Below are positions 39,301-63,990 of a stretch of DNA of 64,000 bases, one piece after another. Origin of the DNA: Octopus vulgaris (Eukaryota); NCBI GenBank assembly GCA_951406725.2, contig OX597823.1, positions 37,758,001 through 37,822,000 on the forward strand, given 5' to 3'. The translations under genes were made by a program, and so were the position numbers. Numbering within the stretch: position 1 is the stretch's first letter; every line of letters begins with the position of its first letter. Under the pieces are notes generated by a model. The model saw only the letters and a list, made by a program, of their open reading frames with translations. It did not search any database and was not told where the DNA came from.

Positions 39301-41520
39301 AAAACCAGAGAGGACAAGGGTAAAAACATGATGGTTTGAAAGAGGTGAGGGTGAATGATGGATGCCAATACCCAATGGAGTAAAGATAGAGTGTTTGGGG
39401 TTCATCTATATCTGATGCAATTCCTTATATATATGCTTCAGGCTGGTTTTCTTGCTTATCATCCTCATTATCTCCACTGTTCTCAGTAAGAAGTTTAACC
39501 ATCATTTCTTCTTCCATTAACACCTATTACCCAGGGTCACTTGCTTTCTCTCTTTCTCATATAAATCTCTTTTCTTTTTCAGGATTTCACTTGATACAAG
39601 AATGAAATCACAGAAACAAAATGAGCTGAAAAGACATTTTGCAAATTTAAAGAACTTGGTATTCCCTCCACTGGAATCTAGTGTTATGGAGGTTTGTATA
39701 AAATATACCAGTTTATTAACAGTCACTAGTTTATTATTAATCTTAGGGATGAATGCCACAGAGTGAGAAGTTTTGCTGAGTCACTATGTTGACCTGTTTT
39801 CTAGATCAAGATGGCTAACTCACTTCACTTATGTTGCCAAAACCACTCTCAAATATCATGATATTCTGTTACGTACTTCTAAAACAGGAATCAGCAAACT
39901 TCTTATATCATCAAGCCCTTTATAGAATTGTTGATAACATATTGAGACCCATCATGTAAATTTCTAAAATAAAATTAAGAATGGCGTTGCCCCAGCATGG
40001 CCACAGCTCGCGAGCTGAAACTAGATAAAAATAAAAATAAATAAAATAAAAATAAGTACAATTAATAAAAAATTTCTTGATTCAAAAACATTAAATCCTT
40101 TGTTCTTTTATGTCATTACTACTCTTTAATGAAGAATAGTTAATGAAAATTATGGAAAGTATTTTACGAAATTGATAAATAAAAATAAAAATTCAGTTAT
40201 ATTGCATTGAAGATTTACCCCTTGGATAGCCACATAGACTTCCAGAGTTTGATATTAACCAGTTTGCTGAACTCTGTTCTAGATTACAAAATATTTGTCT
40301 TTGGTCACAGGTTTAATGATTTATTGGTAAAGAGTCCTATGATTCCTAGTATGTTTAAATCAATTTAACAGTTCATAAAATATAAACAAGAATAATTACA
40401 GTGAAGATGGAACTCAGATAAAAGTAAAAAATGGAAATGAATTTGTTGTTGGTTTCATAAATGAGTTTCCCAGTTGTTCAATCTCTTTATTGGAATAAAG
40501 GATAAGTGGCTCATTATTCCACAGACACTGTTAATGTAAATGCTCAGTGAAAGTCAGCATTGACTCAATGTGACAAAGATACTTATTAAAATTACTGGTA
40601 TCATCCATTCAAAGGACCTCCATATAGTCTCCATTAACTAAGTTTCTCTCACAAAATATGGATCTCTATCATAAAAAAACCCAAACATTTGTCAATGCTA
40701 ACCTGCAGAGAGTTTGAAACATTGACTGCATAATTGTAAAGATAATTTCTTAACCATTCAACCACATCTGACTCATTGCATGAAGCAGAAATATAAAAAT
40801 GATAACCAAAAATTAAGTGAAAAAATTAATGGAAATTAAAAAATCAGAAGAGTTTCAGACCATGTATTGATTTATTGGGTGAGATGACACTAGTTAATAA
40901 TATTACACTGGTACCACTATTACTTCTAACTCTAGGATACCATACCAAAATTATACAAATAGCTGAATGACTTAATGTGAAACATTATGTTACTGAGTTA
41001 AAATACTGCTTTATAATTTTGGCATAAGGCCAGCAATTTTGAGAAGAGGGCTAGTTGATTACATCGACTCCAGTACTCAACTGGTACTTATTTTATTGTT
41101 ATCAAACAGACGAAAGGCAAAGTCTACCCCTAAAGTATGGAAGAAATGTTGCTAAGCATTTTATCTAGTTTGGTAACAATTCTACCAGCTCACTGCCTTA
41201 CAGAATTAAAATATTGACAAGACAAACTTTTACTTCACACAAGCTCCTCTAGATGAAGGCCAATAGACTAATATTAGATTTGGTACCATATTGTCACCAT
41301 GAAAAATGACTTTGGTTCTAGCTCTATAATCTGTTTCAAAATATTTTTGGTTTTAAAACTCTTCCCAGTGATGAAATACAAATTAACTAGTTATTCTTAC
41401 AGCAATCTTTTGTCACATCATGGTTTTAAGGATCATCTTCATTGATATTTGACATAAATATTTTACAGATTCGTAACTTCGGACTCCAAGGCTTTTTTGC
41501 ACCTCTGTATGCAGTAAGTA

Positions 41521-41581
<61 letters not shown>

Positions 41582-41625
41582 GTTACTGCTACTGCTGCTG
41601 CTACTACTGCTGCTGCTGCTGCTGC

Positions 41626-41686
<61 letters not shown>

Positions 41687-44600
41687 TATTATTATTATTA
41701 TAATGATAATAATTTGTTTTCTCCAACATCTTTCAACAACTCTCTTATTGAAGAACCTTTTGAGTGTGATGGGATACTCAACCTGAAGAAAATTCTAACT
41801 AGGCCCAATCTGCAAGGTCATGCACTGTTTGTCTTGATGAGATCACCATGCTGTGCACATATGGCTGTGCTACATGTGCCTGGTGTACCCTGTTTAGACA
41901 GGTAGTCATGATGGGTATACTGGGCTTCATATACTTTACCCCAGTGTCACTTTGCTCTCCCACTCAGTAATAATAATAATAGTGATGCAGCACTAGGTAG
42001 TGGTTCTCATGGCTTCTGATTTTAACTTATTGGAAGGGTTAGCACTTATATATTTTGACTTGGCATAAAGGATGGGCTACAGCAAATATTCTGCTCAATA
42101 TCACAAATTTACTCGTCAGCTGCTTGACCATAACCACCTGAGCATGTCCCTTAGTAACCAACAACATGTGCATCTCTGAGCATGAGCAAGCGTAGTAGGG
42201 GAGCGTACTAGCCATGTGTTGAGAGGAATTTGTTGGGGTTCGAATAATTCACCACTGGAAACATGGGTATTTTGTTTATCATCCTTAAACAAACCTTTCA
42301 AATCATCATATTATCTTACAATAAGATAAACATATTGGATAATGTAATCCTAGATACACTAGACCTGAAAATAAAATGAGATGGTCATGGTTGGAATGCC
42401 TTTGATAATAGATCTGTTCAAAGAAGGTTGATTGAGGATTAAACAATAGCCAGTCCTCACAACATATACCAATGTAATTATGTTATTTACATCTATTAAT
42501 TCATGATTTAATAATGTTTCTGAATTGTTTTATTTTGCACTTTTTGTAAAATATTTTTGTTTTTGGACATGTTCTTGTATAGCAAGTGTTTTGATTTGAG
42601 ATTGTGTGCTGAAACTAAAGTGATTACAGTGTGGAAGACATAAGTTGGCCATTCAGAAACACACAGAGATAGTCAACTTCACTGAAACATTTATTTGTAA
42701 TATGATGTTAAAATTTTCATCACTCAAAACTGCAACCTGTCCACTGGCAAAATTGTGCTATTTTGAGCAACAAAAATTTTCATATTTTACAAATAAATAT
42801 TTAAGTGAAGTTGATGGTTGTTGTGTGTTTCTGAATGGCTAACTGATGTTGTTTTTTTGTCTTAAACTAATTTTTGTTTGTTCTTGATTTTCAGCCAGTG
42901 CCAACTGCAGGTGGACAAATTGGTTCTTTTTTGGTTGCTGTAAGTATCTGAAAATACTAATTTCAAATTTTGACACAAGGATAGCAAGTTCAGGGCAGGG
43001 GTTAAGTTGATTACATTGGCCCCAGTGTTCATTTGACACTTATTATTTTATTGATCCTGAAAGGATGAAAGGTAAAGCATACCGCAGTAGAATCTGAACT
43101 CAGAACTTGAAGATGGACAAAATGCTGCTAACAATTCTACTAGCTTGCTGCCTCAGTATCTAAAAATATTAACTCTTGTGTTGGACTTTCTAAGACTATC
43201 GAATGTTTTCTTTTGTAGATTATCTCTAATTCTTTATAGAAATATCTAATATTATTTCAAAGCTTGATGGTTACCTTGCTTGAAAACAGGTGAGAGTTGG
43301 CAACAAGAAGGACACCCAACCATAACAGAACTGACTCAACAAAGTTTATCTGACCTATGCAAGCATGGAAAAGTGGGTGTTAAAATAATGATGATGATGA
43401 TGATGATGATGCTTAAATTACTCATTATAATCACTAATTTGGGATGGAAAGAAAGCCAAGAGGTTCAAACTTGCTTTTAAATTAATGTTTACAATGTGTA
43501 ATAACATTTTACATTGATAATGTTAGTAGAAAATTCATTCATATAAACAGGTGGTAGAGAAATTACCTCCTCCATGTATTGTATCAGCTTTTTTTAAAGT
43601 TGTCAGGAGAATATTTAATGGAAGCCTTTAAATGTATTTGTTATTTTTATATTTTCTAGTTGAATGACGTTTTGGAAGGAACTGAAATTGTCTTCCCATT
43701 TGGCAATATTACAGCTACTGTAAAAAAGGTAAGCAATTGGCAAATTTACTCTCTCTCTCTCCCCCTCTCCCCTCTCTCTCTTTCTCTTCATCTCTCCCTG
43801 TCTCTCTCACTTCATCTTCTTTTTCTCTTATCAAAGGGTGGTGATGACTTAGGAAAATATAATGCAGGAAGGTCATGGCTGGAATGTCTTTGATCACAGG
43901 TCTGCGTAAGTCTAAATAGTAACACCACCATCATCACAACTACAGAAAAGACCCCAGTTTGTCCCTCCTATTGGTAAAGAAAGATAACAGAGACATAGCT
44001 CACAAGGTGAGAGAGCCTTGATAATAGATGAAAGAGATGTAAGAGAATGGTAATGGAGACAGTAATAGAGAGAACAGTGCTGGGAGTGGAAGTAATAGAG
44101 GGGAGAAGGAAAGAATAAAAGAATATATTTAGAAGGCCAATATGACTTTTAAGTTGAAAAAAAAATATCCACAGAGTGTGCAGGTTTGAAAAAACATTTT
44201 GTTTGCAAAATTCTGTCCTACTCTCCATACTACACAAGCTCTCTAGTGAGAATAAGACTTAATGCAGGATATCTATAAAGATATCCTGCATTAAGCATCA
44301 TCAACATGATCATTATCGTTTTAAGGTCCACTTTTCCTTGCTTCATTTGATCAGTGGGAGTTTATTGAAGAAGATTTTCATTAACTGGATACCCTTCCTG
44401 ACCCTAACTTTCACTTATTTCCTAGCAAGGTAATATTTCCCCATGGCCAGACATGTTTCCACAGAATACTGAAAATGAATGACACTGCTTGTATGACAGT
44501 GACACTCATTTACAACTATCAAGACAAAGTGCTACAAAGCTTAGGTGCATTACAATTCATTATTTTATATTGTTTTAACATTTTATTTTAAAATTTGACA

Positions 44601-47600
44601 ATGTTAATTTTAATGGAAACAATAATCAAAAACATTATCCTTTTTTTTCTTGGAACAGGGATCTGCCCTCTTCTGGTATGCTATTCATCTATACCCAGCA
44701 ATTTGCCCTATATCTCATGGTTCATTGTGGCGTAAGTTGACTCTCAGTATATTCTTCATTGATTTCACTCAAATAGTCACAACTATTGGTTGAGTATCAG
44801 TCTCTTGTTGTGTGTATATGTATGCATGAATTCAAGTATATGTGTATGTATGTATGTATATACATATATATGTATATGTGTGTATACACACACACACACA
44901 CACAAACACACATGCACATATAGACTGCAGTGTCTGTGGAGGTAAATGGTAATTATCAGTTAACTGTAAAATGCAAGCAATTATAAATAGAAATGATTTG
45001 CTTTGAGCTTTGACATATGATAGACTGTTATCTTTATCCATTAGCAAAGGCACAATGGAGACAAAAAGCGTTCTGTTTCCAACCATGATGAGGAAAAATT
45101 CTCTACTTTTACTGCAAGATTATTCAAGTGAATTCTTTGACTCATTGTAATAGAATTATTACGTTTATTAACAGCATAACACTATATGATGCTCCATATA
45201 TATGTTAAAGGTTATTCACAATTGTTATACAATCCCTGAAGATTTGATAATGAAATCTATTTATAAGGGGTTTTTGTTTTGTTTTTATAATAGATATTGT
45301 TGTTAATGAAATGTAAGATGATGTAATTAAATTATTTGTGAATACTCTCTCCAGTTTTGCTTTTTCCTATATGTAATCTATGATATTGCTATGGAGAATA
45401 GTGATTAGAAACTTAACTATAATTCACAAGATCTCTTTTTAGTTTTCTCTTTTGATATACATATAAGGATGTACTGGTTTTATCTATAATGCATTAAAAG
45501 TCAGCTTGAATCATGGCTGGCTGGTTGCTTGCTTGCTTGCTTGCAATGTTACCCAGCCCAACTGGCACATAATGGAGAAATACTATGAAATAGGTTTCCC
45601 CTGAAATGTAAACACAAATGGAATAAAATAAATTTTGCGTAAATTGGAAAAGTGGTTGTGAACATATTAGGAGTTTCAGGGTATAAATACCCAAAACAGT
45701 GCATAATTGGAAAATTCTCTGAAATTCACTTAATCTTGAAAGGGGAGAAACTGTTACCTTTCAATTAGTCACAGTGACTTGATAACAAAAAGATACAATT
45801 TGTTTTTTAACAGTAAATGTTTCTATTTTCGCTTTTGTTAAACACAGTATTTTAATCATTTAGAAATGTTTTAAAGTGAATGTGATTTCAAAAATATAAG
45901 TTGTTTGTACAGTAAGTATTTATATTTTAGCTTTCTTTAAACAGACAATAACCTAACGTTTTTAAATTTATTTTCAAGTAAATACCTTTATAAAAATTCT
46001 TTTTGGCATATTTAAAAAATATTTTAAAGTGAAAATGATGGTAAATATTTCGTAAAAGACCTGTTAACCTCAGGAAGAAATAATTTCTTTCCATAGGTTT
46101 TTTGCAAGTGCATTCACTGTATCTCACCTCCAAAGATTTGGCTGCTATTTCTAGCAAGCCCTGCTACTGCATAACAGTTATTTGCGATAAAGGACCTGAA
46201 ATATCTGTTACGTGGTAGCAGAGCATGCAAGAAATAGCAGCCACATCTTTGCTTTTCTGGGGAAAGGAGTTGTTTACGCGTGATTTCGATGTCACATTCA
46301 TGTGAAAGCATGTGAAATAACCTGGAAAAGAAAAAAAACCCCATGAAACAAAACTCCATTGCTGGGAAACTCAGGCTTTCCCAGTACCCAACAGGTCAAG
46401 GGTAGTCTAGTGTCATATAATTTTAATTAAAATTACACTATATTGTTAAATGTGTGTGTGATTTTGTACATACATACATACATACATACATACATACATG
46501 TGTATATATGTATGTGTATAAAGTCATATTATTAACGTTATATACAGTAATATTAAGGTGGCTAGCAAGTTCACACGTTTACAGGTACAATATGTTGTAA
46601 TTTAAGAAAAGTATGGTATAAATACCACTTGCTAAAAGCAAAGCCATAGCTAAAAAGAAAAAAAACACCATAAAAATTATGATAAAGATACACATGAGCA
46701 ATGCATTTAACATTTATTTCTAAAATTTTTCTAAAAATTTAACATCTATTTCTAAAATATTCACTACATTAGCTCATGTGCATTTCTAACTTTAGAAATA
46801 GATGTTAAATGCTATTTTCAACTGAAGATCACAAAGCATGTTTATAATGCAAAGTGTGAAATCAATTGGTATTGAAATATGTATTACTTATCTTTGTATT
46901 CCATTCAGAGGTAAGCCTATTTCTGAAGTGTTCATTGCATTGCTCATGTGTAATTTTTATTGTAATTTTTATGGTGTTTTTTTTTTGAGCTATGGCTTTG
47001 ATTTTAGTAAGTGCTAGTTATACCCTATTTTTCTTAAATTACTGTATATTGTGCCTGTAAAGGACTGAACTTGCTAGCCACCTTATTATTACTGTATATA
47101 ATGGTAATAATACGACTTTTATTTAAATTTTTCTTGTTTATGATAGTTTCTTTTAAGTGGAGCAGGACATTTAAAGTTAGAAATGCACATGAGCTAACAT
47201 AGTGAATATTTTAGAAATAGATGTTAAATGCTATTTTCAACTGAAGATTGCAAAGCATGAAATCAGTTGGTATTGAAACATGTATTACTTATCTTTGTAT
47301 TCCAGTCAGAGGTAAGCCTATTTCTGAAGTGTTCATTGCATTGCTCATGTGTATCTTTATAATTTTTATAGTGATTTTTTTTTTACCTATGGCTTTGATT
47401 TTAGTAAGTGGTATTTATATCCTACTTTCCTTAAATTACTATGTATGTATATATATACTGACCACTTAAAAGTGGATGTTGCAATAGAACACACAAATAC
47501 TGTAATATTTACCAACAGAGAAAACTCTCATATGCTTATTCGGTGTATAAAAGCATATCATAGCTATCATCTGCAGCAGACAATCACTGCTGCTTCTACT

Positions 47601-48812
47601 GCCAGGACCACCAGATCACATGATTTCATCCTCTTTTTGTGTATATGTATGTTGTCTGCATGTATATATATGTGTGTGTGTATGTGTGTGTGTGTGTGTG
47701 TGTGTGAGTGTGTGTGTGTGCGTGTATTGAGGCGCAATGACCCAGTGGTTAGGGCAGCAGACTCGCGGTCGTGGGATCGTGGTTTCGATTCCGAGATCAG
47801 GTGTTGTGAGTGTTTATTGAGCAAAAACATCTAAAGCTCCATGAGGCTCTGGCAGGGGTGGTGGTGAACCCTGCTGTATTCTTTCACCACAACTTTCTCT
47901 CACTCTGTCTTCCTCTTCCTATGTCTGTTATACCTATATTTCAAAGTGCCACACTGTATCATGCTGAATCTCCCCGAGAACTATGTTAAGAGTACATGTG
48001 TCTGTGGAGTGGTCAGCAACTTACACGTTAATTTCACGAGCAGGCTGTTCCGTTGATTGGATCAATTGAAACCCTTGTCATCATAACTGAGGGAGTGTCA
48101 CGACAATGTTGTATATATGTATGTATAAGTTTATGTTTGTATGTGTTTCCATGTTTATATGTATATCTATGTTTGGCTTAATATGCAGGATTATTGAATC
48201 ACATCCAGTTAATATTGTGTTTTGCACCCAAAGCAAAGATACTAAACAATTGCCGGATTAGTTTAACTGAATATAGATACCATACAGAGGTGCAATTTAA
48301 TTTCACAACCAGTGGAAGCACTGAATAATTGATATGAGGTGATGGCCTTCAAATATTAATGTTCACTGTCTTTCTTCATCTGGATATGCCATAAAACATG
48401 ATTATCACACTAAGAATAGACTGAACAGAACAGGAGACATATGGGCTAGAGAGTTGCTGAAGAGGTCCCAGGATGTGTATGAAAAATTTCCAGACAAAAG
48501 GACATAAAATAAGAATAATAATAAGCAAGTGAAGAGTGAATATATAGTGCTTGTGTTTATTTGTCAAGAAGAAAAAAATGACCATAGTGAAATATATCAA
48601 TAAACTAAGAATGTTTATAAATATTGTTGAGAAATGAACAAAAACTACATTTTCTTTAAATTACAGTTGCCTCTATTGGGTACTATGAAGGCAAAGCTAA
48701 TTACTGTCGAATGACACAGAGAAGAGCATGGGACTTGCGATGGCGACCACAAAAGAAACGGAAACCACAAGTAACTATGAGTAATACTGTTAATGAAAAT
48801 AAAAAATCTTAA
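23716..48812 (+). CDS. P4HA: Prolyl 4-hydroxylase alpha-like gene, 13 coding exons (1662 nt, 553 aa), probably catalytically inactive
   Basis: Exons 23716-23957, 24725-24882, 27424-27782, 32692-32743, 34033-34184, 36532-36696, 37260-37306, 39583-39691, 41469-41513, 42895-42939, 43660-43728, 44659-44731, 48667-48812 all have AG/GT boundaries and compatible phases, with no internal stop. Motifs [61 protein letters not shown] are colinear with P4HA. Confidence 0.88.
24725..24882 (+). CDS. P4HA: P4HA-like coding exon 2
   Basis: ttttcag acceptor; [21 protein letters not shown] matches the P4Ha_N motif; donor GTTTGT, phase 1. Confidence 0.92.
25466..25683. repeat. ~66-bp inverted repeat with ~86-bp spacer
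   Basis: 25466-25531 is the near-exact reverse complement of 25618-25683. Confidence 0.9.
25941..26024 (+). ncRNA. Minimal type I hammerhead ribozyme motif
   Basis: gacc-CTGATGA-[long stem II with cattaac/gttaatg]-GAAA-tgcatg-TA-ggtc. Confidence 0.62.
26881..27110. mobile_element. pogo/Tigger-like MITE
   Basis: TA-flanked; termini cagtaatccct / aggaattactg. Confidence 0.72.
27424..27782 (+). CDS. P4HA: P4HA-like coding exon 3
   Basis: cttag acceptor; [18 protein letters not shown] and [10 protein letters not shown] (start of TPR-like domain); donor GTGAGA, phase 0. Confidence 0.92.
28195..28495. repeat. (GAT)n and (TATG)n microsatellites
   Basis: Directly visible. Confidence 0.95.
28661..29200 (-). 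mobile_element. RTE-type LINE 3' end with a duplicated ~95-bp segment
   Basis: Family sequence; acatgccaccggcactggta...gtcttcacaag.agagtttt present twice. Confidence 0.82.
29792..30240 (-). mobile_element. Tc1/mariner-superfamily relic
   Basis: ta-cagagt terminus; - strand [18 protein letters not shown]. Confidence 0.6.
30990..31310 (+). mobile_element. maT-type (DD37D) transposase fragment
   Basis: QDSAPCH..., [16 protein letters not shown]; same family as 54512-55781. Confidence 0.75.
31620..31990 (-). mobile_element. Possible highly decayed Penelope-like GIY-YIG 3' end
   Basis: QYYIG-like stretch on - strand; no continuous frame. Confidence 0.25.
32692..32743 (+). CDS. P4HA: P4HA-like coding exon 4
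   Basis: tcag acceptor; [20 protein letters not shown] helix; donor GTAAGT, phase 1. Confidence 0.87.
34033..34184 (+). CDS. P4HA: P4HA-like coding exon 5
   Basis: tgtag acceptor; [15 protein letters not shown]...YEKLC; donor GTAAAT, phase 0. Confidence 0.92.
36061..36168 (+). repeat. Inverted repeat containing a variant hammerhead-like motif
   Basis: 36061-36110 mirrors ~36121-36168; aactgt-CCGATGA-tggc..gcc-aaaac...acagtt. Confidence 0.55.
36532..36696 (+). CDS. P4HA: P4HA-like coding exon 6
   Basis: aacag acceptor; RLYCYL...[18 protein letters not shown]; donor GTGAGA, phase 0. Confidence 0.92.
37260..37306 (+). CDS. P4HA: P4HA-like coding exon 7 (short, divergent)
   Basis: Only candidate I found that supplies the required phase 0 to phase 2 bridge; pyrimidine tract + aacag; [16 protein letters not shown]; donor GTTTGT; little sequence similarity. 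Confidence 0.65.
38787..39130 (+). mobile_element. Penelope-like element fragment (linker + start of GIY-YIG endonuclease)
   Basis: [16 protein letters not shown]...IFNR...INYSC then [27 protein letters not shown]...[15 protein letters not shown]. Confidence 0.8.
39583..39691 (+). CDS. P4HA: P4HA-like coding exon 8
   Basis: strong tttctttttcag acceptor; ISLDTRMK...PPLESSVME in the position of SAWL...AEELQ; donor GTTTGT, phase 0. Confidence 0.78.
39885..40276. mobile_element. hAT-type MITE with nested SINE tail
   Basis: TIR caggaatcagcaaact / agtttgctgaactctg; imperfect 8-bp TSD ttctaaaa / ttctagat. Confidence 0.7.
41469..41513 (+). CDS. P4HA: P4HA-like coding exon 9 (HxD position, substituted)
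   Basis: ttttacag acceptor; [15 protein letters not shown] aligns without gaps to VANYGVGGQYEPHFD; donor GTAAGT. Confidence 0.88.
41521..41712. repeat. Compound trinucleotide microsatellite (CTA)n(CTG)n(ATA)n(ATT)n
   Basis: Directly visible, starts just after the exon 9 donor. Confidence 0.95.
42895..42939 (+). CDS. P4HA: P4HA-like coding exon 10
   Basis: ttttcag acceptor; [15 protein letters not shown] aligns to GNRIATWLFY; donor GTAAGT. Confidence 0.82.
43660..43728 (+). CDS. P4HA: P4HA-like coding exon 11
   Basis: ttctag acceptor; [23 protein letters not shown]; 69 nt, same length as the paralogous - strand exon; donor GTAAGC. Confidence 0.92.
44659..44731 (+). CDS. P4HA: P4HA-like coding exon 12
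   Basis: aacag acceptor; [24 protein letters not shown]; donor GTAAGT, phase 1. Confidence 0.9.
45483..46410 (+). mobile_element. Non-autonomous Helitron-like element
   Basis: a/TCtataat 5' end; subterminal hairpins ctgggaaa..tttcccag and accc..gggt; CTAG/t 3' end. Confidence 0.6.
46816..46877 (+). ncRNA. Type I minimal hammerhead ribozyme, copy 1
   Basis: tttcaa-CTGAAGA-t-cac..gcat..atgc..gtg-t-GAAA-tcaattgg-TA-ttgaaa; 6-bp stem I, palindromic stem III, GUA triplet. Confidence 0.75.
47235..47278 (+). ncRNA. Type I minimal hammerhead ribozyme, copy 2
   Basis: tttcaa-CTGAAGA-t-tgc-aaa-gca-t-GAAA-tcagttgg-TA-ttgaaa. Confidence 0.75.
47731..48105 (+). mobile_element. tRNA-derived SINE (tRNA-Arg-like head)
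   Basis: ggcgcaatgacccagtggttagggcagcagactcgcggtc...ggtttcgattcc with A/B boxes, followed by ~300 bp of non-tRNA body. Confidence 0.8.
48667..48812 (+). CDS. P4HA: P4HA-like terminal coding exon (best candidate)
   Basis: ttacag acceptor in matching phase; [14 protein letters not shown]...NKKS-stop supplies a C-terminal Cys; similarity is weak. Confidence 0.65.
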
Positions 48813-49089
48813 TAATCTCTACAATTAATTCCTTTGTTTTTGTTGTTCTCTTTTAGTCATCTGTTCTCATTATAAATTTCTTTAAAGCAATTCTTGGTGC
48901 ATCTATGTGCTGGAAATTTAAAAAAAAAAACCCCCAGAAAACTGCATTCATGGCCTGTAAGCAATACAAAGTTACATTCACATATTTGACTGTTTGGGTT
49001 CAATTCCTTGACTGAAAATCAGCAGCAGTAATTTAGTGACAGTGAGAATCAATGCCTAAATTTTTTTTTCTTTTTAAAAAAAAAAATCC

Positions 49090-51500
49090 TCAAACAAACT
49101 GAGAAAGTTTTTTTGGGAAATGTACAATTTTGCCACTTCTAGTTTTCTTTACATTTGTAGGTGATTTTAGAATTGATTTCGCTTTTCCCTCAACATCGGA
49201 TTTGTCTTTTTCTATATCATTTTGTTTCACGTTGTGTTGATGTGTGTTGCTCATATCTCCGTTTTCATGACATGGATATTGGTTGAAATAAGCTTTTTTT
49301 ACTCTGTCGACACTGACAATTTCTTTCTTTCCATTCATTTCCAAAGTCATGGTTTTGTCTGTAACTGATAAGACTTTAAAAGGTCCGGTGTATTTATATT
49401 TCAGTGAATTATGAGCTGCATCGTTACGGACATACACATGTGTCCAAGATTTTATATCCGAAGGAAGAAAGCTTTTAACATTTTGCAATTTTCTTGTAAA
49501 AGAAGGAATATCAGTAAGAAATCTTTTTAGACGAGTTACATAATCATTAACATCTCCATTGAAAAAATTAGTTTCTTCGAACATTTGATCAGGTAGAGTT
49601 AATGTTGTTCCGTACAAAAGTTCAGCCAGAGAATATTGTAAATTCTCTTTAACAGCACTTCTAATTCCTAACAACACTACTGGTAAGGCCTCTAGCCAAC
49701 TGTTAGAATCAGAATAGGTTCTTAATGAAGATTTCAACTGTCTATGGAACCTTTCTACCATTCCGTTAGACTGTGGGTGATATGAAGTTGTACGAATTCT
49801 ATTAATTCCCAACAATTTATTGAATTCTGCGAACAAGTTAGACTCAAATTGTCTACCACGATCTGTTGTCACTGTATTTGGGATGCCAAATTTAGACATC
49901 CAATTGGTAAATAAGGTTTTTGCTATAGTTACTGCAGATACGTCTTTTATCAGATAAGCCTCGGGCCATCTCGAAAAGCGATCAACACACGTCAACAAAT
50001 ACATATTATCCTCACATACATATTATCTTATGGAGGTAAGGGTCCAACTATATCGATGTGGATATGTTGGAATCTTGCATCCGGATTTGCAAACGTACCT
50101 AATGGTGCTTTGATATGACGCTGCACTTTGGATTTCTGACATTGTATACATGACTTTACCAATGAACGAATATCCTTATTCATACCAGGCCAAACAAAAC
50201 GACTTGATATTAATTTTAACGAAGCTTCTATACCTGGATGAGATAAATTATGTAAGCTAGAAAAAACATTTTTTTAATGCTTTTCAGGCACAAATGGTCT
50301 TGAAAAACCTGTAGAAATATCACACCAAATATGTGAATTACACGAATGTATCGGCAACATTTTAAATTTTAAAGCAGTTGAATCGGAATTTTTATATAAA
50401 GAAAATTCCTTATCTGCAACTTGATCCTTAGACATTTCTTCCAAATTTATAGTGTTTAATGAGTTTAATACATCTACATTCATTCTAGAAAGTGCATCTG
50501 CTACTGAATTTTCAACACCCTTGATATAACGTATATCCACAGTAAACTGTGAAATAAAATCAAGGTGTCTAACTTCTCTCAGAGAATATTTCTCCGAAGA
50601 ATTTTTTAACGCATATGTTAATGGTTTATGGTCAGTGAATAAAGTAAATGACCTACCTTCAAGAAGATGTCTGAAATGTTTAATTGACAAATAAGCTGCC
50701 AACAATTCTCTGCTGAACACACTGTATTTAGTTTCTGGTGCCTTGAATTTTTTTGAAAAAAAAATGCTAATGGTTGCCAGGAATTACAATGAAATTGCTG
50801 TAGAACGCCACCGATTCCAACATCGGAAGCATCAACCATGAATGATAATTTCGCTTCAGGAACCTAATGGTTTAAAAGCATTGCTTTACACAGTTTCTCT
50901 TTAATTTATTTAAAAGCTTGTAATTCTGTTTCTTTTAAAGTTATGGCTTCATTTTTTCTTCTATTTTTCAATAGCTCAGTTAAGGGATATAGGGTTTCCG
51001 TAACTTTAGGAATAAACTTTCTGTAAAAATTAACTATCCCTAAAAATTCTCTGAACTTCCTTAAATTATTTGGTACAGGAAAGTTTTTTATTGCTTCAAC
51101 TTTTTCTGGTAATGGGCAAATTCCATCTTTATCTATAAGATGACCCAAAAAAGATATAGTTGTTTCACCAAAAACACATTTCAATGGATTTATCACAATG
51201 CCAAAATTCGTCAATCTTTCGAAAATTTTTTAAAATGTTCTTTATGTGTTTCTTCTGATGGACTGGCAATGAGAATATCATCTATATAAGCAAATACGAA
51301 AGGTAAATCTCGTGTTACCTTGTCCATGAATCTTTGAAAAGTATTTGCTGCGTTCCTCAATCCGAAAGGCATGCGAAGAAATTCAAATAAACCAAATGGA
51401 GTGGTAATGGCTGTCTTCGGTATATCATTTTCTGCCACAGGAATTTGATTGTATGCTCTGACTAAATCAATTTTTGAAAAAATAGTACAACCATGAGATT
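49090..51500 (-). mobile_element. Gypsy/Ty3 pol relic (RT, RNase H, integrase), no LTR seen
   Basis: [85 protein letters not shown]; several frameshifts and stops. Confidence 0.95.
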
Positions 51501-51699
51501 CCTGACTACGTTTTGGGCTTTGCTCAAAATCTTCACTTAAAACATGGAACCTATTGGGTGATAAAATTTGCTATGAATGTTCATGTGAGAAGTTATAATT
51601 TTTAGTTGTCTTTCTATAGATAATCCATTTTTGGGTAGGTGATAGAATGTGAGTGACTTCTGTGGTTTTTGTTGACATTTGAAAAACCTTGTTTTCGAG

Positions 51700-52030
51700 A
51701 CAAAATCTTAAATGTGCTCACATTTTTGACTGATCAAATAAAAACTTCTCCTGAGCATTTCTAATGACCAGTTCAAATGCATATGTTGGAGCAAAAAGGC
51801 CACAGTCATATGTGCCAACTTGGGGATTTGTTATATGAACTTGTTCAACTGTAGGAACACTGTTTGTTTGTGATGAGTAAAACATTGTTATATGTGCTAT
51901 TAGTTCCTGCGAAATTGGTAAGTTCAAACTGTCATAAATATAAACATCTCTGAGAAATTGGTCAACAAAGCAAAATGATTGATCCTGGTGTGATGAATGA
52001 ACAGAGTGCGGTGTTGGAAATTTCATATGA
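51700..52030 (-). pseudogene. Ulp1/SENP-like cysteine protease fragment, probably transposon-derived
   Basis: VYIYDSL...QVGTYDCGLFAPTYA...FDQSKM resembles the Q-x(4)-DCGLFA catalytic Cys motif. Confidence 0.5.
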
Positions 52031-52671
52031 GAAAAAATGGTCTTTTTAAAACAGTTTAACCAAAATACTGTGATTTCATTTAATCGTATTTATTTAAGAT
52101 ATTAATGAAACTTGGCCAGGCTACATACAGTAATAATAATCTCACAATAAAAAATATCTCTAAAAAAGTTTCAAAAAGAGATTAAAAACAGTTAAATGTA
52201 TTTTATTTACTCAACACAGCATTTCTCCCTCAGACTTCATCCCACGTTGTTTCCAAATTGTCATCTTCCAGTATTTCTTTTATCAGAACACTATTGTTGT
52301 TGTTAGTTTCTTTAAGAGATCTTTTATTATCTTTTCACTATGAAATCTAGTCTAGTTATTTTTTCTTTGGTTTTTTTTTTTGTGAGGATTCGGTATGATG
52401 GCTTACTTTAGCTACTTCATGGGAATAATAATTAAAACTCAACTGTAGAAGCACAATTTGTTGATTTATTTATTAGTAATGAAGATAATAAAAACTAGTT
52501 GCATGTATTTCAATCTTATCTGAATCTCTTCAGAGTGAAACTTGAAAAAAAACAAAACATTATTTCTTTTCTATTTATCATCAGTATATTATAATAAAAA
52601 TTGCTTTCTAGAAATGTGCTCTGCTTTTCAATATTCTTCACAAGCTTTTGGTGTCAAAGTCACTTCCCAGT

Positions 52672-52742
52672 TTACAAATGGGGATCTAATAAACATGGTC
52701 TTCTGAATGTTTGTCCTGCTTCTCGAATCCATTTGGTACTTA
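52672..52742 (-). CDS. P4HA: P4HA (- strand) terminal exon
   Basis: tttag acceptor; KWIREAGQTFRRPC then TAA. Confidence 0.95.
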
Positions 52743-53762: not shown

Positions 53763-53795
<33 letters not shown>

Positions 53796-56700
53796 CACAC
53801 ACACACACACATGAGTGTGTGTGTGTGTGTATATATGTATGTGTGTGTATGTATATATGTATATATATATATATATGTATATATCACTTGATTGATCAAA
53901 TTATCGGATGTTGTTATGCATCACTGGTCACAATACACTTTGCATAATTTTAGCATTTGAACGATCTGCTCCACTGGCTAAGCAAGCAAGCCAATATATA
54001 TCATATATCATAAAGTCCAGAAGGTGTATTTAACAATTAACCTTTTTCACCTGACAAAGTAGTCCAAATTTTGCATTATCCTCAATGAACTTTTCGCATG
54101 TTGCATTAATGCAGACATGTCAGTAGCTTATTTATTATTAAATATGATAAGATGAGCTATTTACATGTTTTGGGATTACTGAAACAAATTTGTTGTGATA
54201 TTTTGATGTTTATTGTTAAATAAAGTTCATCATAATTTTTCTCCATCATTTATATTTTTATGCTTTCCTTATTCTTTTCTCATGTATATTACTATATACT
54301 CCATATGGTTTGTGGTATGACAAATTAAAGAGCTTTTTTAAGAGTACTATGAGATTACTTGAATCCATATAGCGTGACTTATATTTATATATACTTATAT
54401 AAATATATGTGTATATGTATGTGTGTGTGTGCGTATACACACACTTATATATACATATGCATACACACACACGTGCGCACGCACACACACACACACACAT
54501 GTATATATATACAGGATGCAGTGAATAAATTGTCTAAATTATGCAAAAATGAAAATAACACTGACATCTCATTTCAACAGATATTTTTACCAAAATTACA
54601 TTAAAATATCTTGAGATAGTAAAGAGTAAATTTATTCAACAAAATCGCCATTGGCTTCAACTGACAACTTTGGAATCTTCTTCAACTCTTTTGGATGGTC
54701 TCCTTGTTTAAGTTGGTGAATGCTGCTATAATCCTTGCCTTCAGTTCATCTTTGGTGTTACAAGGAGTTTTGTTGGTCTCTCTCTCAACTGTGCCCCATA
54801 CATAATAATCAAGGGGATTGCAGTCTGGTAAGTTAGGTGGCCAAATGTTAGGGGTAATGTGCTTGCAGAAAGCCATGACTGGGTTCTTCTGCCTGTGTGG
54901 CATGTCATAGAGTCCTATTGCCAAACATAGGGTCTTTCAGCAGCTCTCTCTTGACTCAGGCAGCCCTACCTCCTCCAGGCACTTGATGTAGGCCTCTGTG
55001 TTGAGTCTGAGGCTGTGTAGGAAAATGAACAGAGGCATAACGTTGCCATTACTAGTGATCACTCTAGACACCATGATGTTGACTGGATGTTTGATTTTTA
55101 TCACACTTGGAACATGTTTTGGGGACAGAGCAAGCCAACTGTTGTTTTAAGTGTTCACCAGCTGATCCTGGCAGAATATTTTCTGGTTTAAGAAAAACCA
55201 AAGCATGTTCAGTTGGAGGGGATACATGAGTCTGTTCAAAAGCTTTGGAACACAGATTTTCTTCTTGTCCATGATGGCTTGGGAAAAAAAAATTGATCCT
55301 TTCTCATCTTGTATGAGGAATACTGAATGTCTTCATGCACAACCTACCCGGATAAGATACTCCCATGTCCTGTGCAATGGACCTGATTGACTTGAAGATT
55401 TTGTTGTCAATCATGGCCTGGATCTCACCAACAAATTCAGGAGTTCTTTTCTTATCAGAATGATGAGAGTGAGTTTTCCAAGCCGCTATATCTTCATAGT
55501 AGCCATTAGAGTCATCCAAGTCTTTCCAAATCCTCTGCACTGTCCTCAGACTGACACCCAAACACTCTGAAATGTTCATATTAGAGCTTCTGGTATAGGT
55601 GCTAAGCAGTAGAGCATGTCGTTTCCAAATTTCTGGCAGAGGGAATTGTATCATGGACCTGTTTTTCTCATAGATGATGCCCAACTGCTCCTACAAAACT
55701 GTGTAGTCAACAAAGTCAAAAGCAATGCACATGTGCAAAATTAAAATTGTAAAATGGCAACAATTTACCCATCGCACCATGTATATATATATGTATGTGT
55801 GTTTGTGTTTGTGTGTGTAAATGTATATTTATATGTATGTATGTATATATATGTGTGTGTATATATATATATATGTGTGTGTATATATATATATATATGT
55901 GTGTGTGCATGCATACATACATATACACACACACATATATATATTAAAAGTCAGGGTACAATATGTACCTTTTTGCTAGAAAGAAGAGTTAAAACTCCCC
56001 AAAGCCACACCTCTCTCAATATTTGTTAACACGCACAGAGAATGTAGCAAATATACTAAAAGCAGTTATTTTTTTAGTATATTCGTAGTTAAGAGTGATG
56101 ACAGCTGCATTTGTAGGTGCAAGAACAACCCTGTTGTGAAGCCAATCTGGTTTTATGTATTCCATTGTAAGATTTGGGTAAACAGCAGAACATAAGTAGT
56201 TAGGGCTGGAGACATCATGGCTAATGGTGGTAGTGTCAATGTATCCATTGTCGTTGGATGCAATTTGTCCATTGCTGATTTTAAGGAGCATTTCTGAAAA
56301 CTGGATTGTAGGCTGACCCAGTAAATGGGCAGTGTAAAAACTGTAGTAGAAGATGAAGTGAAAGTAGCATAACTATTCATCAAGATTAATATCCCCCAAA
56401 GCAACGATCTTTGGTATTTGTTATTTACCTATGAGAAGGTGTTTTCACCTCCTAGAGGCAGCATTACTCATTATGTGGAAAATTTGAAGAGTCTATGACC
56501 ATCTCTGGAACATAAGTGATGCACGTTCCTAGTGTGAACAAAATCGGATGAAAATGTTAATTTTAAGGGGGATCAAGAAAAAGGCCTGTACACACATGTA
56601 CAAACACACATCTTCAGTTTTTTTATATAAAAGACACACACACACTCACACACACATATACATACAGGTACATACAGACACTTGCATGGACTATGCACCC

Positions 56701-58205
56701 ACATACACAGAGACACATACAAGCACATACATGCACAATTGTTAATGTTTAGTTACTCTAGAAAAGAATGAAAAGTTACTCTTACTCCATTTGTCACCAA
56801 ATATAACTGGGCAACCTCCATGGAGCAGACGTGTATCAGGTGTCCCATTGCGATGTAAGTTGTACCACACAGCTGCTGCACCCTAAAACAATAACAACAA
56901 CAAAAAATAAATATTAAACCATGTGGTGTGGGATTTAATTGAAGAAATTATCACAAAGTATTACATATTGTATAATTTCAAATAATGATTTCTAACTGAA
57001 ATACAAAACCACAAGCATTAGGAGAGAGAGAGCAGTCATTTATATTGATCCTAGTATATCACTGTTACAAAGATGAAAGGTTACTAGTGACAATGGAATG
57101 AATATTGGGGAATCACAAGCAAACAGTTTGAGGCATTTTGTTTGTTGCTCTACCAAGTTCGCCATTCACTGAAAAATATGATACAGTACAAGGAGTTGAG
57201 AAATTGAATTTTTATGAAACAAAAAAAAATCTTTTTATAGGTGCAGGCATGGTTGCAGGATATGAAGCTTGCTTCCTAACCACATGGTTCAGGGTTCAGT
57301 CCCATTGCATGGTACCTTGGACAAATGTCTTCTACTACAGCTTCAGGTGACCAAAGCCTTGTGAATGGATCTGGTTGATGGAAAGTGAAAGAAGCCTGTC
57401 GTGTGTGTATGTGTGTGTGTGTGTGAGTGTGAGTGTGTATGTGTGTGTGTGTGTGAGTGTGAGTGTATCTTTGTGTCTGTGTTTGTCCCCCACCACCACT
57501 TGATAACTGATGTTGATATGTTCCCTGTAACTTAGTAGTTCGGCAAAAAGGGAATGATAGAATAAGTGCCAGGCTTAACAAAAAAAAAAAAAAGTACTGG
57601 AATTGATTCGTTTGACTAAAAGTTCAAGGTGGTGCCTCAGCATGGCCACAGTCTAATGATTGAAACAGATAAAAGACAAAAGATAAAAGATACTGCCCTA
57701 CCTTGAGACTAGTTTTGGTTCTATGATGTAAACCCTCTTATTTGAGAATGTTCACATTTTAGTCAAGACCACATACATGAGAACATTTTTGCTTAGTTAA
57801 ATTAACAACAAAATTTTTATTTAATTAAAACCTCTCAAATCTTGATTGTATTGAAAAATAATTGAGATGCATAACTAATATATTTTGTCAGATATATAGT
57901 AATGAAACAGTTAAGTCAAACCTTTACGATTGGTACATGGATGTTAAGTTTCGGGAACACTGTTGCACCTCCCATTAGGACATCACTTAGCTGGAAAATA
58001 ATAAAAGATTTCCACTGGTGAAATTGGAACAAAGTTGTTAATAATACGTTTAGATTTCATTTCATATGATAATTAATACCCTTAAATCTAAAAGTTACAT
58101 CCCAATAACTTTTACACACTAACACCCATTCAAACACATGTGCAACACATATGCATACTCATGCACGCATACTTACACACACATCTATCAATCTACATCT
58201 ATCTA

Positions 58206-58251
<46 letters not shown>

Positions 58252-58901: not shown

Positions 58902-58950
<49 letters not shown>

Positions 58951-59553: not shown

Positions 59554-59619
<66 letters not shown>

Positions 59620-60008: not shown

Positions 60009-60052
<44 letters not shown>

Positions 60053-63000
60053 TATTATATATATTATTTATATCCTATATATATATATAATATAAATAAT
60101 ATATATGCATATATACATATATATATGTACATACTTACATACATATGTATATACATATTCATATGTGGGCACAGGACGTAACAGAACGTAAACAACATGA
60201 AATACGAAATACAAATACGTGGTATATGAACTGTGTTTTTGAACAACGAATGAAACAAATAGAAAACTAGACAAGCGACATAAAGAACGACCCTTCATCA
60301 GTTGTCAGCTGTTTTTCTATTTCGTATTTCAAGCAATTCATGACAAGAAGTGCCTTCAACAAAACAGTTGCTCCCACAAAGCAAATTTAATAAAATTTGG
60401 GATTTTGTGGAGGGTCAAAATTGGTAACAAAAACAGGACAGTGTAAACAAACAGGAAGGGCTGCTAAGCCTAAATGAGGCAAGGTGGTGAACGCAGTGGA
60501 ATAAGCTTGGACAGGAGACAGACAAGAATGCATCTGATCCCTGCAGCTGAATCAGAAGGAAAGAAAGCAACTCAAGTTAGGAAAAGAAAGAAAGATGGCT
60601 GATGGTCACATGCGAGCAACAAGAGAGCAAAGGAGGAAGAGTGAGGGAGAGAGATGGAGAGACAGAGAATGACGAAGGGGAGAGGAAGCACATAAATGTA
60701 AAACAAGATGAAAAAATAGTACTTGAATACCAGATGTAGAGTGATATGCTTTATTAATAAAGCTTTTTTAATTTGTTAGTGGCCAGGCTGGCAGCTAATA
60801 AAATTTTTCTGTAATATAAGCATGTTCTATCCTATTTATACTATTCAACATTATCATTATGCGTTTGAGAATAAAATATTTCGGGGGCGGGTGTGCTGAA
60901 AGTGTAACTGCTAGAGTAAGAATAGCCTGGGCAAAGTTTAGAGAGCTCTTACCCCTGCTGGTGACAAAAGGCCTCTCGCTCAAAGTAAAAGGCAGACTGT
61001 ATGATGCATGTGTACGTACAGCCATGCTACATGGTAGTGAAACTTGGGCTGTGACTGCTGAGGATTTACGTAAGCTCGCAAGAAATGAAGCTAGTATGCT
61101 CCGTTGGATGTGTAATGTCAGTGTTCATAGTCGACAGAGTGTAAGTACCTTGAGAGAAAAGTTGGACCTAAGAGGCATCAGATGTTGTGTGCAAGAGAGA
61201 CGATTGCGCTGGTATGGTCATGTGGCGAGAATGGATGAAGATAGGTGTGTGAAAAAGTGCCACACCCTGGCAGTTGAGGGGACCTGTGGAAGAGGTAGAC
61301 CCAGGAAAACCTGGGTCAAGGTGGTGAAGCACGACCTTCGAACTCTAGGTCTCACCAAGGAAATGACCAGAGACCGAGACCTATGGAAGTATGCTGTACG
61401 TCAGATTACCCGGCAAGACCAGTGAGAACAATCAAAATCAAATCATATATCAGAAAGCAGGGGTTAAGTGACCCATCTGTTTGTGTCCGCTGCCAGCCTC
61501 GTCTGGCACCCGTGTCGGTGATACGTAAAAGCACCATTCGCTCGTGGCCGTTTGCCAGCTCTGTCTGGCCCCCGTATCGGTGGCACGTAAAAGCATCATC
61601 TGTTCGTGTTCGTTGCCATCCCCGCCTGGCCCTGTACCGGTGATACGTAAAAGCACCATCCGTTCGTGGCCGTTTGCCAGCTCTGTCTAGCCCCCGTGTC
61701 GGATGGCACGTAAAAGCACCATCCGTTCGTGTCCGTTGCCAGCCTCGCCTGGCCCCCGTGCCGGTGATACGTAAAAGCACCGTCCGTTCGTGGCCGTTTG
61801 CCAGCTCTGTCTGGCCCCGTGTCGGTGGCACGTAAAAGCACCATCCGTTCGTGTCCGTTGCCAGCACCGCCTGGCCCCGTGTCGGTGACACGTAAAAGCA
61901 CCATCCGTTCGTGGCCATTTGCCAGCTCTGTCTGGCACCTGTGCAGGTGGCACGTAAAAAACACCCACTACACTCGCGGAGTGGTTGGCGTTAGGAAGGG
62001 CATCCAGCAATAGAAACACTGCCAGATCTGACTGGGCCTGACGAAGCCTTCCAGCTCCACAGACCCCAGTTGACCCGTCCAACCCATGCTAGCATGGAAA
62101 GCGGACGCTAAATGATGATGATGATGATGATGATATATTTCAATACATCTCAACGCCTCTAAAAAAAAAAGCAAACTTTGTTTACATATATCGTAATTTC
62201 ACATACACACACACACACATGAATCGATAAAAAGAGAAAGAGAGACATACTTATATACTCATACATGCTTGCAAACATGCACACATGCATGCATACACAC
62301 ACACACACTCAGAGTTGCTATTACACAGTGTTGCCAGGAGTTGCATTAATAATGAAGATCATCGAGTAAGAATCATCATACGAGGGACGTTCAATAAGTA
62401 ATGGCCCTGACCCACTTGCAGTTGTTTGATCTAAGTGAAACTTTGCATGTGCAATTATTTATATCTCTATAGATTAAGTGGTAAATTACAGCTCTGAACT
62501 AATTGTGGTTTCTGATTTACAGGTATTTTAACTGAGTCAAGTGTAAAATGGAGCCAGTTGAGTGTCAAGCAGTGATCCGGTTTTTGTATTTGAAAGGACG
62601 CACACCTCGGGAGACTTTTGATGAAATGAAAGTAACTTATGCCCCATCATATGACCTTGTAAAACGCTGGCATCGTGAATTTAAACATGGTCGGAACCCT
62701 GTGGAAACAGCTCCCAGATCTGGTCGCCCCCTTCTGCCATTGATGAGGCATCTGTCCGTCAAGTTGAGGCTGCCATTTTGGAAGATCAATGCATAACTAT
62801 TCGCCAAATAGCCCATGAGGTCAAGATTAGTACCGGGTCTGTGGAAACTATTATTCATGACCATTTGCATATGCAAAAGGTGTCTGCCAGATGGATTCCC
62901 AGGTTGCTCACACCTTTCCAGAAGCAAGAACGCGTCGAGTGCTCGAGGATGAATTTGGAGATGTGCCAAGAAGATGAGTCAAAATTTTTCAGAAGACTGA

Positions 63001-63990
63001 TTACACAGGATGAAATCTGGGTCCATCACTATGATCCAGAGACCAAAGCCCAGTCAATTCAGTGGAAGCACCGTGACTCATCTCCTCCAAAGAAGGCAAG
63101 GGTGCAGCCCTCCGCTGGCAAGGTTATGCTCACAGTCTTCTGGGACCAGGACGGAGTAGTGATGACAGATTTCCTGGCAAAGGGTACCACGATTACAGGA
63201 GCCTATTATGCTTCACTTTTGAGGAAATTAAGAGAAGCTATCAAAATCAAGAGGCGGGGCAAGATCAGCAAAGCATCCTCCTCCTGCAGAACAACGCTCC
63301 GATCCACAACTCGCGTGTCGCCAGATCAGAAGCACAGGCATGTGGCTATCAACTCCTCTCCCATCCCCCCTACTCTCCTGACCTTGCACCCTCTGAGTTT
63401 CACCTCTTCCCAGCCATGAAGTTGTTTTTTGAAAGGAAAGTGTTTCCCAGATGATGCAGCCTTGATTTCTGAAGTCACGTCGTGTTGGAGGACCAAACTG
63501 GGGTCTTCTACAAAAACGGTCTCCAGAGCTGCATCAAACAATGAGATAAATGTGTAACTCTGGATGGTTCCTATGTAGAAAAAGACTAATAACTGTGCCA
63601 AGTTTCGTTGCTCTACTGCTATGTGAAGTGGGTCAGGGGCATTACTTATTGAACGCCCCTCGTACATATAATAATATACAGCAACTAAATATAACAACTA
63701 TAAATAACATGTATATAACAAGCAAATATATAACAAATATATACAGCAAATTATTTATAACAAATATATACAACAGTTATGTATAGTAAGTATATATAAC
63801 AGCTATTTATAACAAGTATATATAACAGCTATATATGATAACTATATATAACAACCATGTATAGCAAAAATAACAATAATGATTAAACAATAACAAAGTA
63901 AATACAAACGTAAAGTATAACTGTTGCAATTCTATCACCAGAATTTTGAAAAAGTGGAACGTCTTCGAATTTTGCTTTTCTGTAGTAACT
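52672..63990 (-). CDS. P4HA: Second prolyl 4-hydroxylase alpha gene, 3' part (last 4 exons; 5' part lies beyond the window end)
   Basis: Exons 63990-63910, 57990-57922, 56882-56786, 52742-52672 splice in frame to SYYRKAKFEDVPLFQNSGDRIATVILY-LSDVLMGGATVFPKLNIHVPIVK-GAAAVWYNLHRNGTPDTRLLHGGCPVIFGDKW-ISTKWIREAGQTFRRPCLLDPHL-stop. Confidence 0.95.
53343..53745 (-). mobile_element. RTE-type LINE 3' end
   Basis: (CAT)n, family sequence, and 5' edge gctgtgcttgaggagacc resembling the last codons of the RT ORF at ~61392. Confidence 0.82.
54512..55781 (-). mobile_element. Near full-length degenerate maT-type (DD37D) Tc1/mariner element
   Basis: TA-flanked imperfect TIRs; HTH ISECLGVSLRTVQRIWK; WPPNLPDCNPLDYYVWG. 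Confidence 0.85.
56070..56634 (-). mobile_element. Helitron relic with PIF1-like helicase fragment
   Basis: LLKISNG...AVYPNL...DWLHNRVVLAPTNAAVITLN; - strand 5' end TCtttatataaa. Confidence 0.65.
56786..56882 (-). CDS. P4HA: P4HA (- strand) exon carrying the distal Fe-ligand His and the 2-OG Lys
   Basis: ttttag acceptor, GTAAGA donor, WYNL...HGGCPVIFGDKW. Confidence 0.96.
57241..57690 (+). mobile_element. tRNA-derived SINE with internal (TG)n
   Basis: Same family as 4964-5360. Confidence 0.8.
57922..57990 (-). CDS. P4HA: P4HA (- strand) exon with GGATVFP motif
   Basis: ttttccag acceptor, GTTTGA donor, LSDVLMGGATVFPKLNIHVPIVK. Confidence 0.95.
59750..60450. repeat. Diverged ~270-bp inverted repeat pair flanking a (TA)-rich microsatellite
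   Basis: ctgtcctgtttttgtt/aacaaaaacaggacag, gggagcaactgt/acagttgctccc, caactgatgaaggg/cccttcatcagttg, cgtcctgt.ccca/tggg.acaggacg; related copy at 30555-30965. Confidence 0.8.
60883..62134 (+). mobile_element. 5'-truncated RTE-clade LINE: RT C-terminus, 3' UTR minisatellite, (GAT)n tail
   Basis: ORF with AWAKFREL, MLHGSETW, RLRWYGHV, RGRPRKTW; TSD ATATTTC at 60876-60882 and 62135-62141. Confidence 0.92.
61480..61965 (+). repeat. Minisatellite of 8 x ~61 bp, alternating A/B units
   Basis: cgtaaaa anchor at ~61524, 61586, 61646, 61709, 61770, 61831, 61891, 61953. Confidence 0.92.
62381..63662 (+). mobile_element. Full-length degenerate mariner transposon (irritans-like)
   Basis: TA-flanked ~37-bp TIRs cgagggacgttcaataagtaatg...; frameshifted transposase 62548-63589 with WIPRLL, TQDEIWV, SAGKVMLTVFWD, YSPDLAPS. 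Confidence 0.95.
63910..63990 (-). CDS. P4HA: P4HA (- strand) exon with GDRIAT motif
   Basis: ttttctacag acceptor, GTTTGT donor, 27 codons ending SGDRIATVILY. Confidence 0.93.

Follow-up and report, generated by a model that had tools for sequence, protein, structure and literature searches.

A probable mollusc-wide clade of prolyl 4-hydroxylase alpha subunits without iron and 2OG ligands, with a member in Octopus vulgaris

Gene A of Octopus vulgaris encodes a prolyl 4-hydroxylase alpha (P4HA) protein that we take, with a probability of about 0.6, to be the octopus member of a ligand-less, mollusc-wide clade and likely a non-catalytic alpha subunit of ER collagen P4H complexes. Judged from its sequences, the clade itself is probably a real and undescribed pan-molluscan pseudoenzyme subfamily. 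The gene lies in a stretch of 64,000 nucleotides (the window; GCA_951406725.2, OX597823.1:37758001-37822000), which was scanned along with flanks of 60 kb (upstream) and 140 kb (downstream). Profile scans of this extended region found three P4HA genes only, A on the + strand and B and C on the - strand. A fourth gene, D, was found on another contig and sets a lower bound (at least one) for P4HA genes elsewhere in the genome. A PF13640 match on a further contig, which we take from its motif to be a HIF-type prolyl hydroxylase, was rejected as a P4HA.

Gene A (23716..48812, +) has 13 coding exons with GT-AG introns throughout and an intact frame of 553 amino acids, and its product is identical to the public O. 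vulgaris protein "prolyl 4-hydroxylase alpha-1-like". It comprises a signal peptide, an N dimer domain, a PSB/TPR domain and a dead 2OG-dioxygenase domain, and KDEL is absent. Exon 1 (23716..23957) contains the start codon, the signal peptide and the first dimer helix, exon 2 (24725..24882) the part of the N domain with the conserved HPxNAF helix, and exon 3 (27424..27782), which is without the intron present here in D, the end of the N domain and the start of the PSB domain. The PSB domain continues in exon 4 (32692..32743); exon 5 (34033..34184) carries N280 and C315, the equivalents of PSB Asn227 and of Cys294, and exon 6 (36532..36696) the PDI-contact equivalents C331 (Cys311), K344 (Lys328) and E346 (Glu330). 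Exon 7 (37260..37306), encoding the hairpin substrate loop, is 47 nt long versus 68-71 nt in B, C and D, and is followed by exon 8 (39583..39691). The HxD exon, exon 9 (41469..41513), has neither the His nor the Asp, and Phe at the Tyr421 equivalent. Exon 10 (42895..42939; 45 nt versus 66-81 nt) has a shortened betaII-betaIII loop, and exon 11 (43660..43728; 69 nt) encodes Ile at the Thr467 equivalent. In exon 12 (44659..44731; 73 nt) eight loop residues are deleted, the distal His and the 2OG Lys are gone and the Cys504 equivalent is present; exon 13 (48667..48812; 146 nt) encodes C519, the Cys529 equivalent, a basic tail and the stop. Three loops are trimmed, one each in the hairpin exon, the betaII-betaIII exons and exon 12, and in each case about 8-10 codons are missing with the frame preserved.

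Membership of A in the P4HA family by descent is indicated by its N/TPR domains, its CAT fold and its exon structure, all of which are present. PF08336 (61.7 bits) and PF23558 (43.8 bits) both scored above cut-off on a 91%-identical A orthologue, and the N-domain exon of A was also matched in the O. vulgaris genome itself. PF13640 gave no match on the A protein; the CAT domain aligned with 7zsc_A in phmmer at an E-value of 4.5e-5.

Human residue numbers were taken from the available part of PMC9676403 and mapped by motif via D and the 7ZSC alignment. In that part of the source, the HxD motif, the distal His, Lys511, Tyr421 and Thr467 are the Fe/2OG ligands of human C-P4H-II. The iron triad positions (His, Asp, His) are occupied in A by Leu, Ala and Pro, and the 2OG ligand positions Tyr421, Thr467 and Lys511 by Phe, Ile and Leu. 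The preliminary description, made from the window alone, had called this copy dead, and the loss of HxD, of the distal His and of all three 2OG ligands bears that out. The loss extends to the whole clade: an HxD/E motif was found in 0/23 rows of the dead-clade alignment, Lys511 in 0/18, Tyr421 in 0/19 and Thr467 in 0/18, and the distal His was absent from 15 of 18 rows and present in three. The WYN..CP loop has 9-11 residues in 18/19 dead rows (the remaining one being without the region) versus mostly 18 in active rows. Both Tyr421 and Thr467 are present in 92/92 rows of the comparison set, and since these rows were selected for the triad and the Lys, only these two counts are independent.

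The residues used for assembly with PDI are largely retained. In the structure of PMC9676403, as far as its available text goes, Cys311, Cys529, Glu330, Lys328, Cys294 and Cys504 make up the PDI contacts and the intrachain disulfide. The dead clade keeps Cys311 in 18/19 rows, Cys529 in 18/18, Glu330 in 17/19 and Lys328 in 18/19, as well as Cys294 (19/19) and Cys504 (18/18). In the N domain, N43, E51, K87, P104, N106, R113 and W118 are invariant in the dead rows that cover them, and several N-domain positions are more conserved in the dead clade than in active rows. The column of Ile324, which occupies the PDI b' pocket, reads L6 K5 I3 R2 of 18 in an alignment-dependent manner, and is hydrophobic in A. 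The kept PDI-contact cysteines, intrachain disulfide and N-terminal dimer helices fit a PDI-bound, non-catalytic alpha subunit, and the pseudoenzyme role suggested in the preliminary description thus appears plausible; folding needs by themselves may also explain why the cysteines are conserved. The peptide groove of the PSB domain is altered in part. In the P8 pocket, Leu and Ser mostly replace Tyr193 and Tyr196 and the Asp192-Arg223 pair is gone, which argues against ordinary collagen-peptide binding by A, while the P5 pocket (Asn227, Tyr199, Tyr230) retains its aromatics, Asn227 in 17/19 rows and an aromatic residue at Tyr230 in 19/19.

An AlphaFold model of A built on a deep alignment reached a pLDDT of 88.6, and its best matches were human C-P4H CAT and N-PSB structures, with 7zsc_A best for the CAT domain (TM 0.68 on target). 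About 100 of the 123 rows in this alignment are active homologues, so the predicted model is biased toward the family fold. An earlier model from three sequences (pLDDT 41.5) was set aside, and a predicted N-PSB complex of A with B, represented by its O. sinensis orthologue, scored 0.00 with alignments not used and gives no verdict.

A profile built from three A proteins of cephalopods, searched against 1.84 billion representatives, returned a tier of matches scoring above ordinary P4HA. Dead-clade proteins were found in 14 genera (Octopus, Argonauta, Lottia, Haliotis, Nucella, Candidula, Plakobranchus, Solemya, Sinanodonta, Ruditapes, Magallana, Mytilus, Pinctada and Mizuhopecten), together with three more proteins, and the clade spans cephalopods, gastropods and bivalves. 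In a FastTree analysis of 130 rows, from which 28 matches had been excluded for length and in which one Mytilus row was swapped for a longer cluster mate, the 19 dead rows formed one clade (support 100) with cephalopod and bivalve subclades inside. An unrooted IQ-TREE analysis of 42 selected rows, from which the HxD region, the deleted loop and the Lys column had been cut, likewise placed the 13 molluscan dead rows together (100/99). Two degenerate rows, one of them from Tubulanus and both long, joined the dead rows at 100/100. B and C grouped with Owenia and Lineus proteins (100/97), so that their clade contains annelid and nemertean members, and the canonical rest, including D, was split from the dead and B/C clades at 99/96. 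The dead rows are all long branches, which makes the sister group less certain than monophyly. Bivalves, gastropods and cephalopods split in the Cambrian, which would place the loss of activity in the A clade more than 500 million years ago.

Other degenerate P4HA rows were found outside the dead clade in the 130-row tree. Dead P4HAs as such are therefore not unique, and it is the clade conserved across a phylum that is probably new. In the full-text literature searched, no dead P4HA of molluscs was described; most subscription papers, supplements on fly pseudoenzymes, and Table S1 and Fig. S1 of PMC9676403, which could list other dead P4H-alpha proteins, lie outside its coverage. The available portions of PMC12869072 and PMC7971044, which deal with P4H genes, mention no such form, and an Atlas search returned just generic 2OG-Fe(II) clusters (<=0.90).

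Annotation of the flanks, as advised in the preliminary description, completed gene B and found the further paralogue C. B (- strand, 547 aa) has its last four exons within the window: exon 10 (63910..63990, 81 nt), exon 11 (57922..57990, 69 nt), exon 12 (56786..56882, 97 nt) and exon 13 (52672..52742, 71 nt, with the stop). Exon 12 carries the HGGCP and GDKW motifs already noticed there, with the distal His and the Lys, respectively. Exons 1-9 lie 3.8-23.6 kb past the window end, among them the HxD exon, which reads HHD at 3.8 kb; the possibility raised earlier that B too might be without HxD is thereby removed. B has the full iron triad and the 2OG ligands (His, Asp, His, Lys, Tyr, Thr), and its putative activity rests on this complete set of active-site residues, yet it has His at Tyr427 and a degenerate peptide groove, and to call it canonical, as had been done, overstates it. 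In the B gene model the exon-5 donor is weak, the junction being a predicted one, and a truncated tandem copy of exon 6 is present. Public B models are incomplete, and two from O. sinensis stop before the distal His. Gene C (- strand, 542 aa) lies 32-69 kb past the window end. Arg replaces its first His in both O. vulgaris and O. sinensis; an orthologue cluster including Sepia pharaonis has His at this position, and C may likewise be losing its putative activity. D is by its sequence the canonical collagen-type P4HA gene of octopus; its exon 1 was absent from the stretch examined on its contig.

Among the matches listed, the last three junctions of A were spliced GT..AG in contigs from 4, 4 and 3 of four public runs, whose RNA status is a guess; the contigs are uninformative on cells or levels, and depth cannot rank the genes. 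One contig of one run joins the last two exons of B, so that spliced A and spliced B occur in the same run.

We propose that the signal peptide takes A into the ER, where A, being without KDEL, is retained by PDI via the two contact cysteines and the Lys-x-Glu strand, a step that we regard as quite probable. Dimerisation of A would follow by way of its N domain, the likeliest partner being an active alpha subunit and the product a mixed alpha-alpha'-beta2 tetramer, for which we put the odds slightly below even. In such a tetramer A would contribute dimer helices in contact with the active-site loop of its partner, together with a remodelled peptide groove, and would tune stability or client choice rather than hydroxylate. 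In the tetramer model of PMC9676403, so far as the accessible text describes it, the alpha2 helix of the other subunit lies against the active-site loop, and a dead subunit could thus still tune its partner. Mixed alpha tetramers are known in nematodes according to the available part of PMC3548485; human tetramers are described in the source text at hand as containing matching alpha subunits only. Inactive CRTAP and SC65 are partners of P3H enzymes in the accessible text of PMC7619536. Among B, C and D, it is rather unlikely that B in particular is the active partner of A. We also suggest, tentatively, that an alpha subunit dedicated to a non-catalytic role has been present in molluscs since before the bivalve/gastropod/cephalopod split. 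Paired with active P4H subunits and PDI, it would have a regulatory or client-selecting part, as a P4H counterpart of CRTAP whose dimer helices act where they touch the active site of the partner. In octopus, the A-B-C cluster would then be a relic of the subfamily's expansion, with C maybe losing activity.

A could alternatively form its own A2-PDI2 (or A-PDI) complex and, with no active alpha subunit, serve procollagen or other secreted proteins rich in proline as a holdase or a sorting chaperone. The retained Asn227 and the aromatic at Tyr230 would suit such a role, as Asn227 is one of the peptide-groove residues and binds the peptide backbone in the available part of PMC12433258, and the clade-specific N43, K87, H90 and H109, which are not the residues of active P4HA, could favour pairing of A with itself. 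HSP47 is, moreover, described in the text available to us as a vertebrate protein that is absent in Drosophila. However, loss of Tyr193 and Tyr196, which are Leu and Ser in A, weakens (PPG)10 binding in human C-P4H-I (PMC12433258, available part), and both CAT substrate loops are shortened in A. We consider this explanation doubtful, although worth weighing beside that of a subunit in mixed tetramers.

An improbable alternative, corresponding to the competition for PDI considered in the preliminary description, is that A is a competitive damper which sequesters PDI or active alpha subunits and so lowers hydroxylation in some tissues. Retention of PDI-contact and dimer residues in a protein that has lost catalysis and part of the substrate groove is what such a damper would show. 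PDI, however, is abundant and largely outside the complex, as far as the consulted source text goes, so titration by A would be inefficient, and the very long conservation in three classes would seem to suit a positive role better.

The preliminary description had read A and B as products of a local inverted duplication followed by neofunctionalisation, and had noted identical intron positions in the two. The two genes do lie tail-to-tail, with 3,860 bp from stop to stop, and the spacer (48813..52671) contains a broken LTR-retrotransposon pol remnant at about 49,100-52,000 on the - strand. The sizes of the last four exons (45/69/73/146 nt in A, 81/69/97/71 nt in B), their phases (0/0/0/1 in both, all GT-AG) and the 3.86-kb gap were re-derived and are not due to chance, and along the whole genes 12/12 introns agree in position and phase. 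The same 12/12 are found in C, which has one of its own in addition, and 11/12 in D, which is without the last intron and has an extra one in exon 3; of the four introns first compared for A and B, C has four and D three. As far as these gene models go, the shared introns are ancestral and family-wide, and the match, being common to C and D too, is no evidence for a pair. Human P4HA1 carries the last intron as well as the D-type exon-3 intron, and on that comparison the absence of the latter from A, B and C would be a shared loss.

Descent of A from B through a local inverted duplication, either on the octopus or on the cephalopod line, followed by loss of activity, would account for the adjacency, the layout and the common introns. 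Against it, A is 22.5% identical to B versus 26-29% to orthologues from gastropods and bivalves, four in all and including limpet and clam proteins. A grouping of cephalopod A with B was rejected in AU tests (LG+G4, quick tree; lnL -134, p 1.5e-80); among groupings named after viewing the tree, the dead clade with B and its nearest row gave p 0.0025, and the dead clade with the D group p 0.03. A and B are, on this evidence, not each other's closest relatives, and the duplication is refuted in its recent form. The preliminary description had itself named a placement of the two genes in unrelated ancient clades as speaking against its reading, and the tree largely shows this; with a root placed among the canonical rows, the dead and B/C clades may be old sisters, which would fit an ancient tandem expansion. 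A tandem origin of the two clades before the molluscan radiation is possible, and the A-B-C linkage is most simply a trace of that old expansion. Source records of the O. sinensis A, B and C proteins fit a single chromosome. Among the 28 off-length matches, which include fused gene models, no fusion of a dead and an active gene indicating conserved linkage was found. A two-exon search for B/C orthologues returned only O. vulgaris and O. sinensis proteins, the absence of O. bimaculoides and Argonauta being weak evidence.

A reading of A as a pseudogene in decay, or as a mis-annotated locus with no functional protein, as the loss of every catalytic residue could suggest, is refuted by the conservation of A, with identities per domain of 90-92% to O. 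bimaculoides and 69-79% to Argonauta and orthologues across molluscs, and is further opposed by the open 553-residue frame across 13 GT-AG exons and the spliced contigs.

In its known form, collagen P4H is an alpha2-beta2 enzyme in which every alpha subunit is catalytic. That a dead alpha subunit has been retained in three classes of molluscs suggests a selected, non-catalytic job of the scaffold, and A offers a natural tool for asking if one alpha subunit can modulate the active site of another, which the tetramer model suggests. Dead-clade proteins bear enzyme-like database names, and matches to "P4H" in mollusc foot, mantle or muscle may therefore be the dead form.

A resembles P4HA1-3 (PF08336, PF23558; PDB 7ZSC, 4BT8) in its signal peptide, N-PSB-linker-CAT layout, fold, exons, PDI-contact cysteines, intrachain disulfide and absence of KDEL. 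It differs from them in the missing Fe(II)/2OG ligands, the three trimmed loops, the altered PSB P8 pocket and the unmatched PF13640. CRTAP and SC65/P3H4 are not known to have a dioxygenase domain. Like A, they are catalytically inactive relatives, and in the ER they act as partners of collagen prolyl hydroxylases (PMC7619536, available part), a partnership that for A is our proposal; they belong to the P3H family, whereas A has a whole dead domain with PDI contacts. The nematode mixed-alpha P4H provides a precedent for two different alpha subunits per complex (PMC3548485, accessible part), but both nematode subunits are enzymes and A is not. The nearest published case is fly CG34041, part of a Drosophila P4H-alpha expansion that, like the octopus cluster, comprises clustered divergent paralogues with one non-catalytic member. 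CG34041, however, is without the entire CAT domain and is described in flies only, in the part of PMC12340787 available to us, whereas A keeps the domain and its clade is phylum-wide.

The first iron-binding histidine of gene C, the third P4HA of the cluster, is replaced by arginine in both O. vulgaris and O. sinensis. In O. vulgaris the substitution lies on the - strand of the contig that carries the window (G000:C10), 38.3 kb past the window end (sequence stretch L004:8259-8309), and the histidine is kept at this column in an orthologue cluster that includes Sepia. The change to arginine is possibly a second, recent loss of activity. Arginine also occupies this column in one Lineus protein. 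Two of the introns of gene C, those following exons 7 and 9 of 14, are of the GC-AG type (stretches L006 and L005), and an intron that is absent from genes A, B and D lies in exon 3.

For gene B, the neighbour that keeps its catalytic residues, public models conflict around exons 5 and 6, where the exon-5 donor is weak and a truncated tandem copy of exon 6 is present 323 bp upstream (stretch L002:430-983, - strand). Its introns hold two Tc1/mariner-like transposon remnants (window 54520-55720 and 62380-63660). A broken pol remnant of an LTR retrotransposon separates the 3' ends of genes A and B (window 49100-52000, - strand), with frames that by their motifs we take to be reverse transcriptase, RNase H and integrase-like, and LINE-like remnants were located near window 6,500-13,200, 20,900-22,900 and 60,870-61,420. 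One public model gives gene A an additional upstream coding exon (window 23299-23373, + strand). Because other Octopus models differ in the N-terminal extension, the 5' exons of gene A may be alternative.

Canonical gene D carries the exon following the HxD motif as three alternative copies and a peptide-binding domain exon as two (G000:C23:22050489-22059306 and 22088489-22093546); its last two exons are fused.

Two proteins, P0033 and P0088, one of them from the nemertean Tubulanus, cluster with the molluscan dead clade. Their iron ligands are gone, the lysine and full loop are kept, and their sequences possibly represent an intermediate stage outside molluscs.
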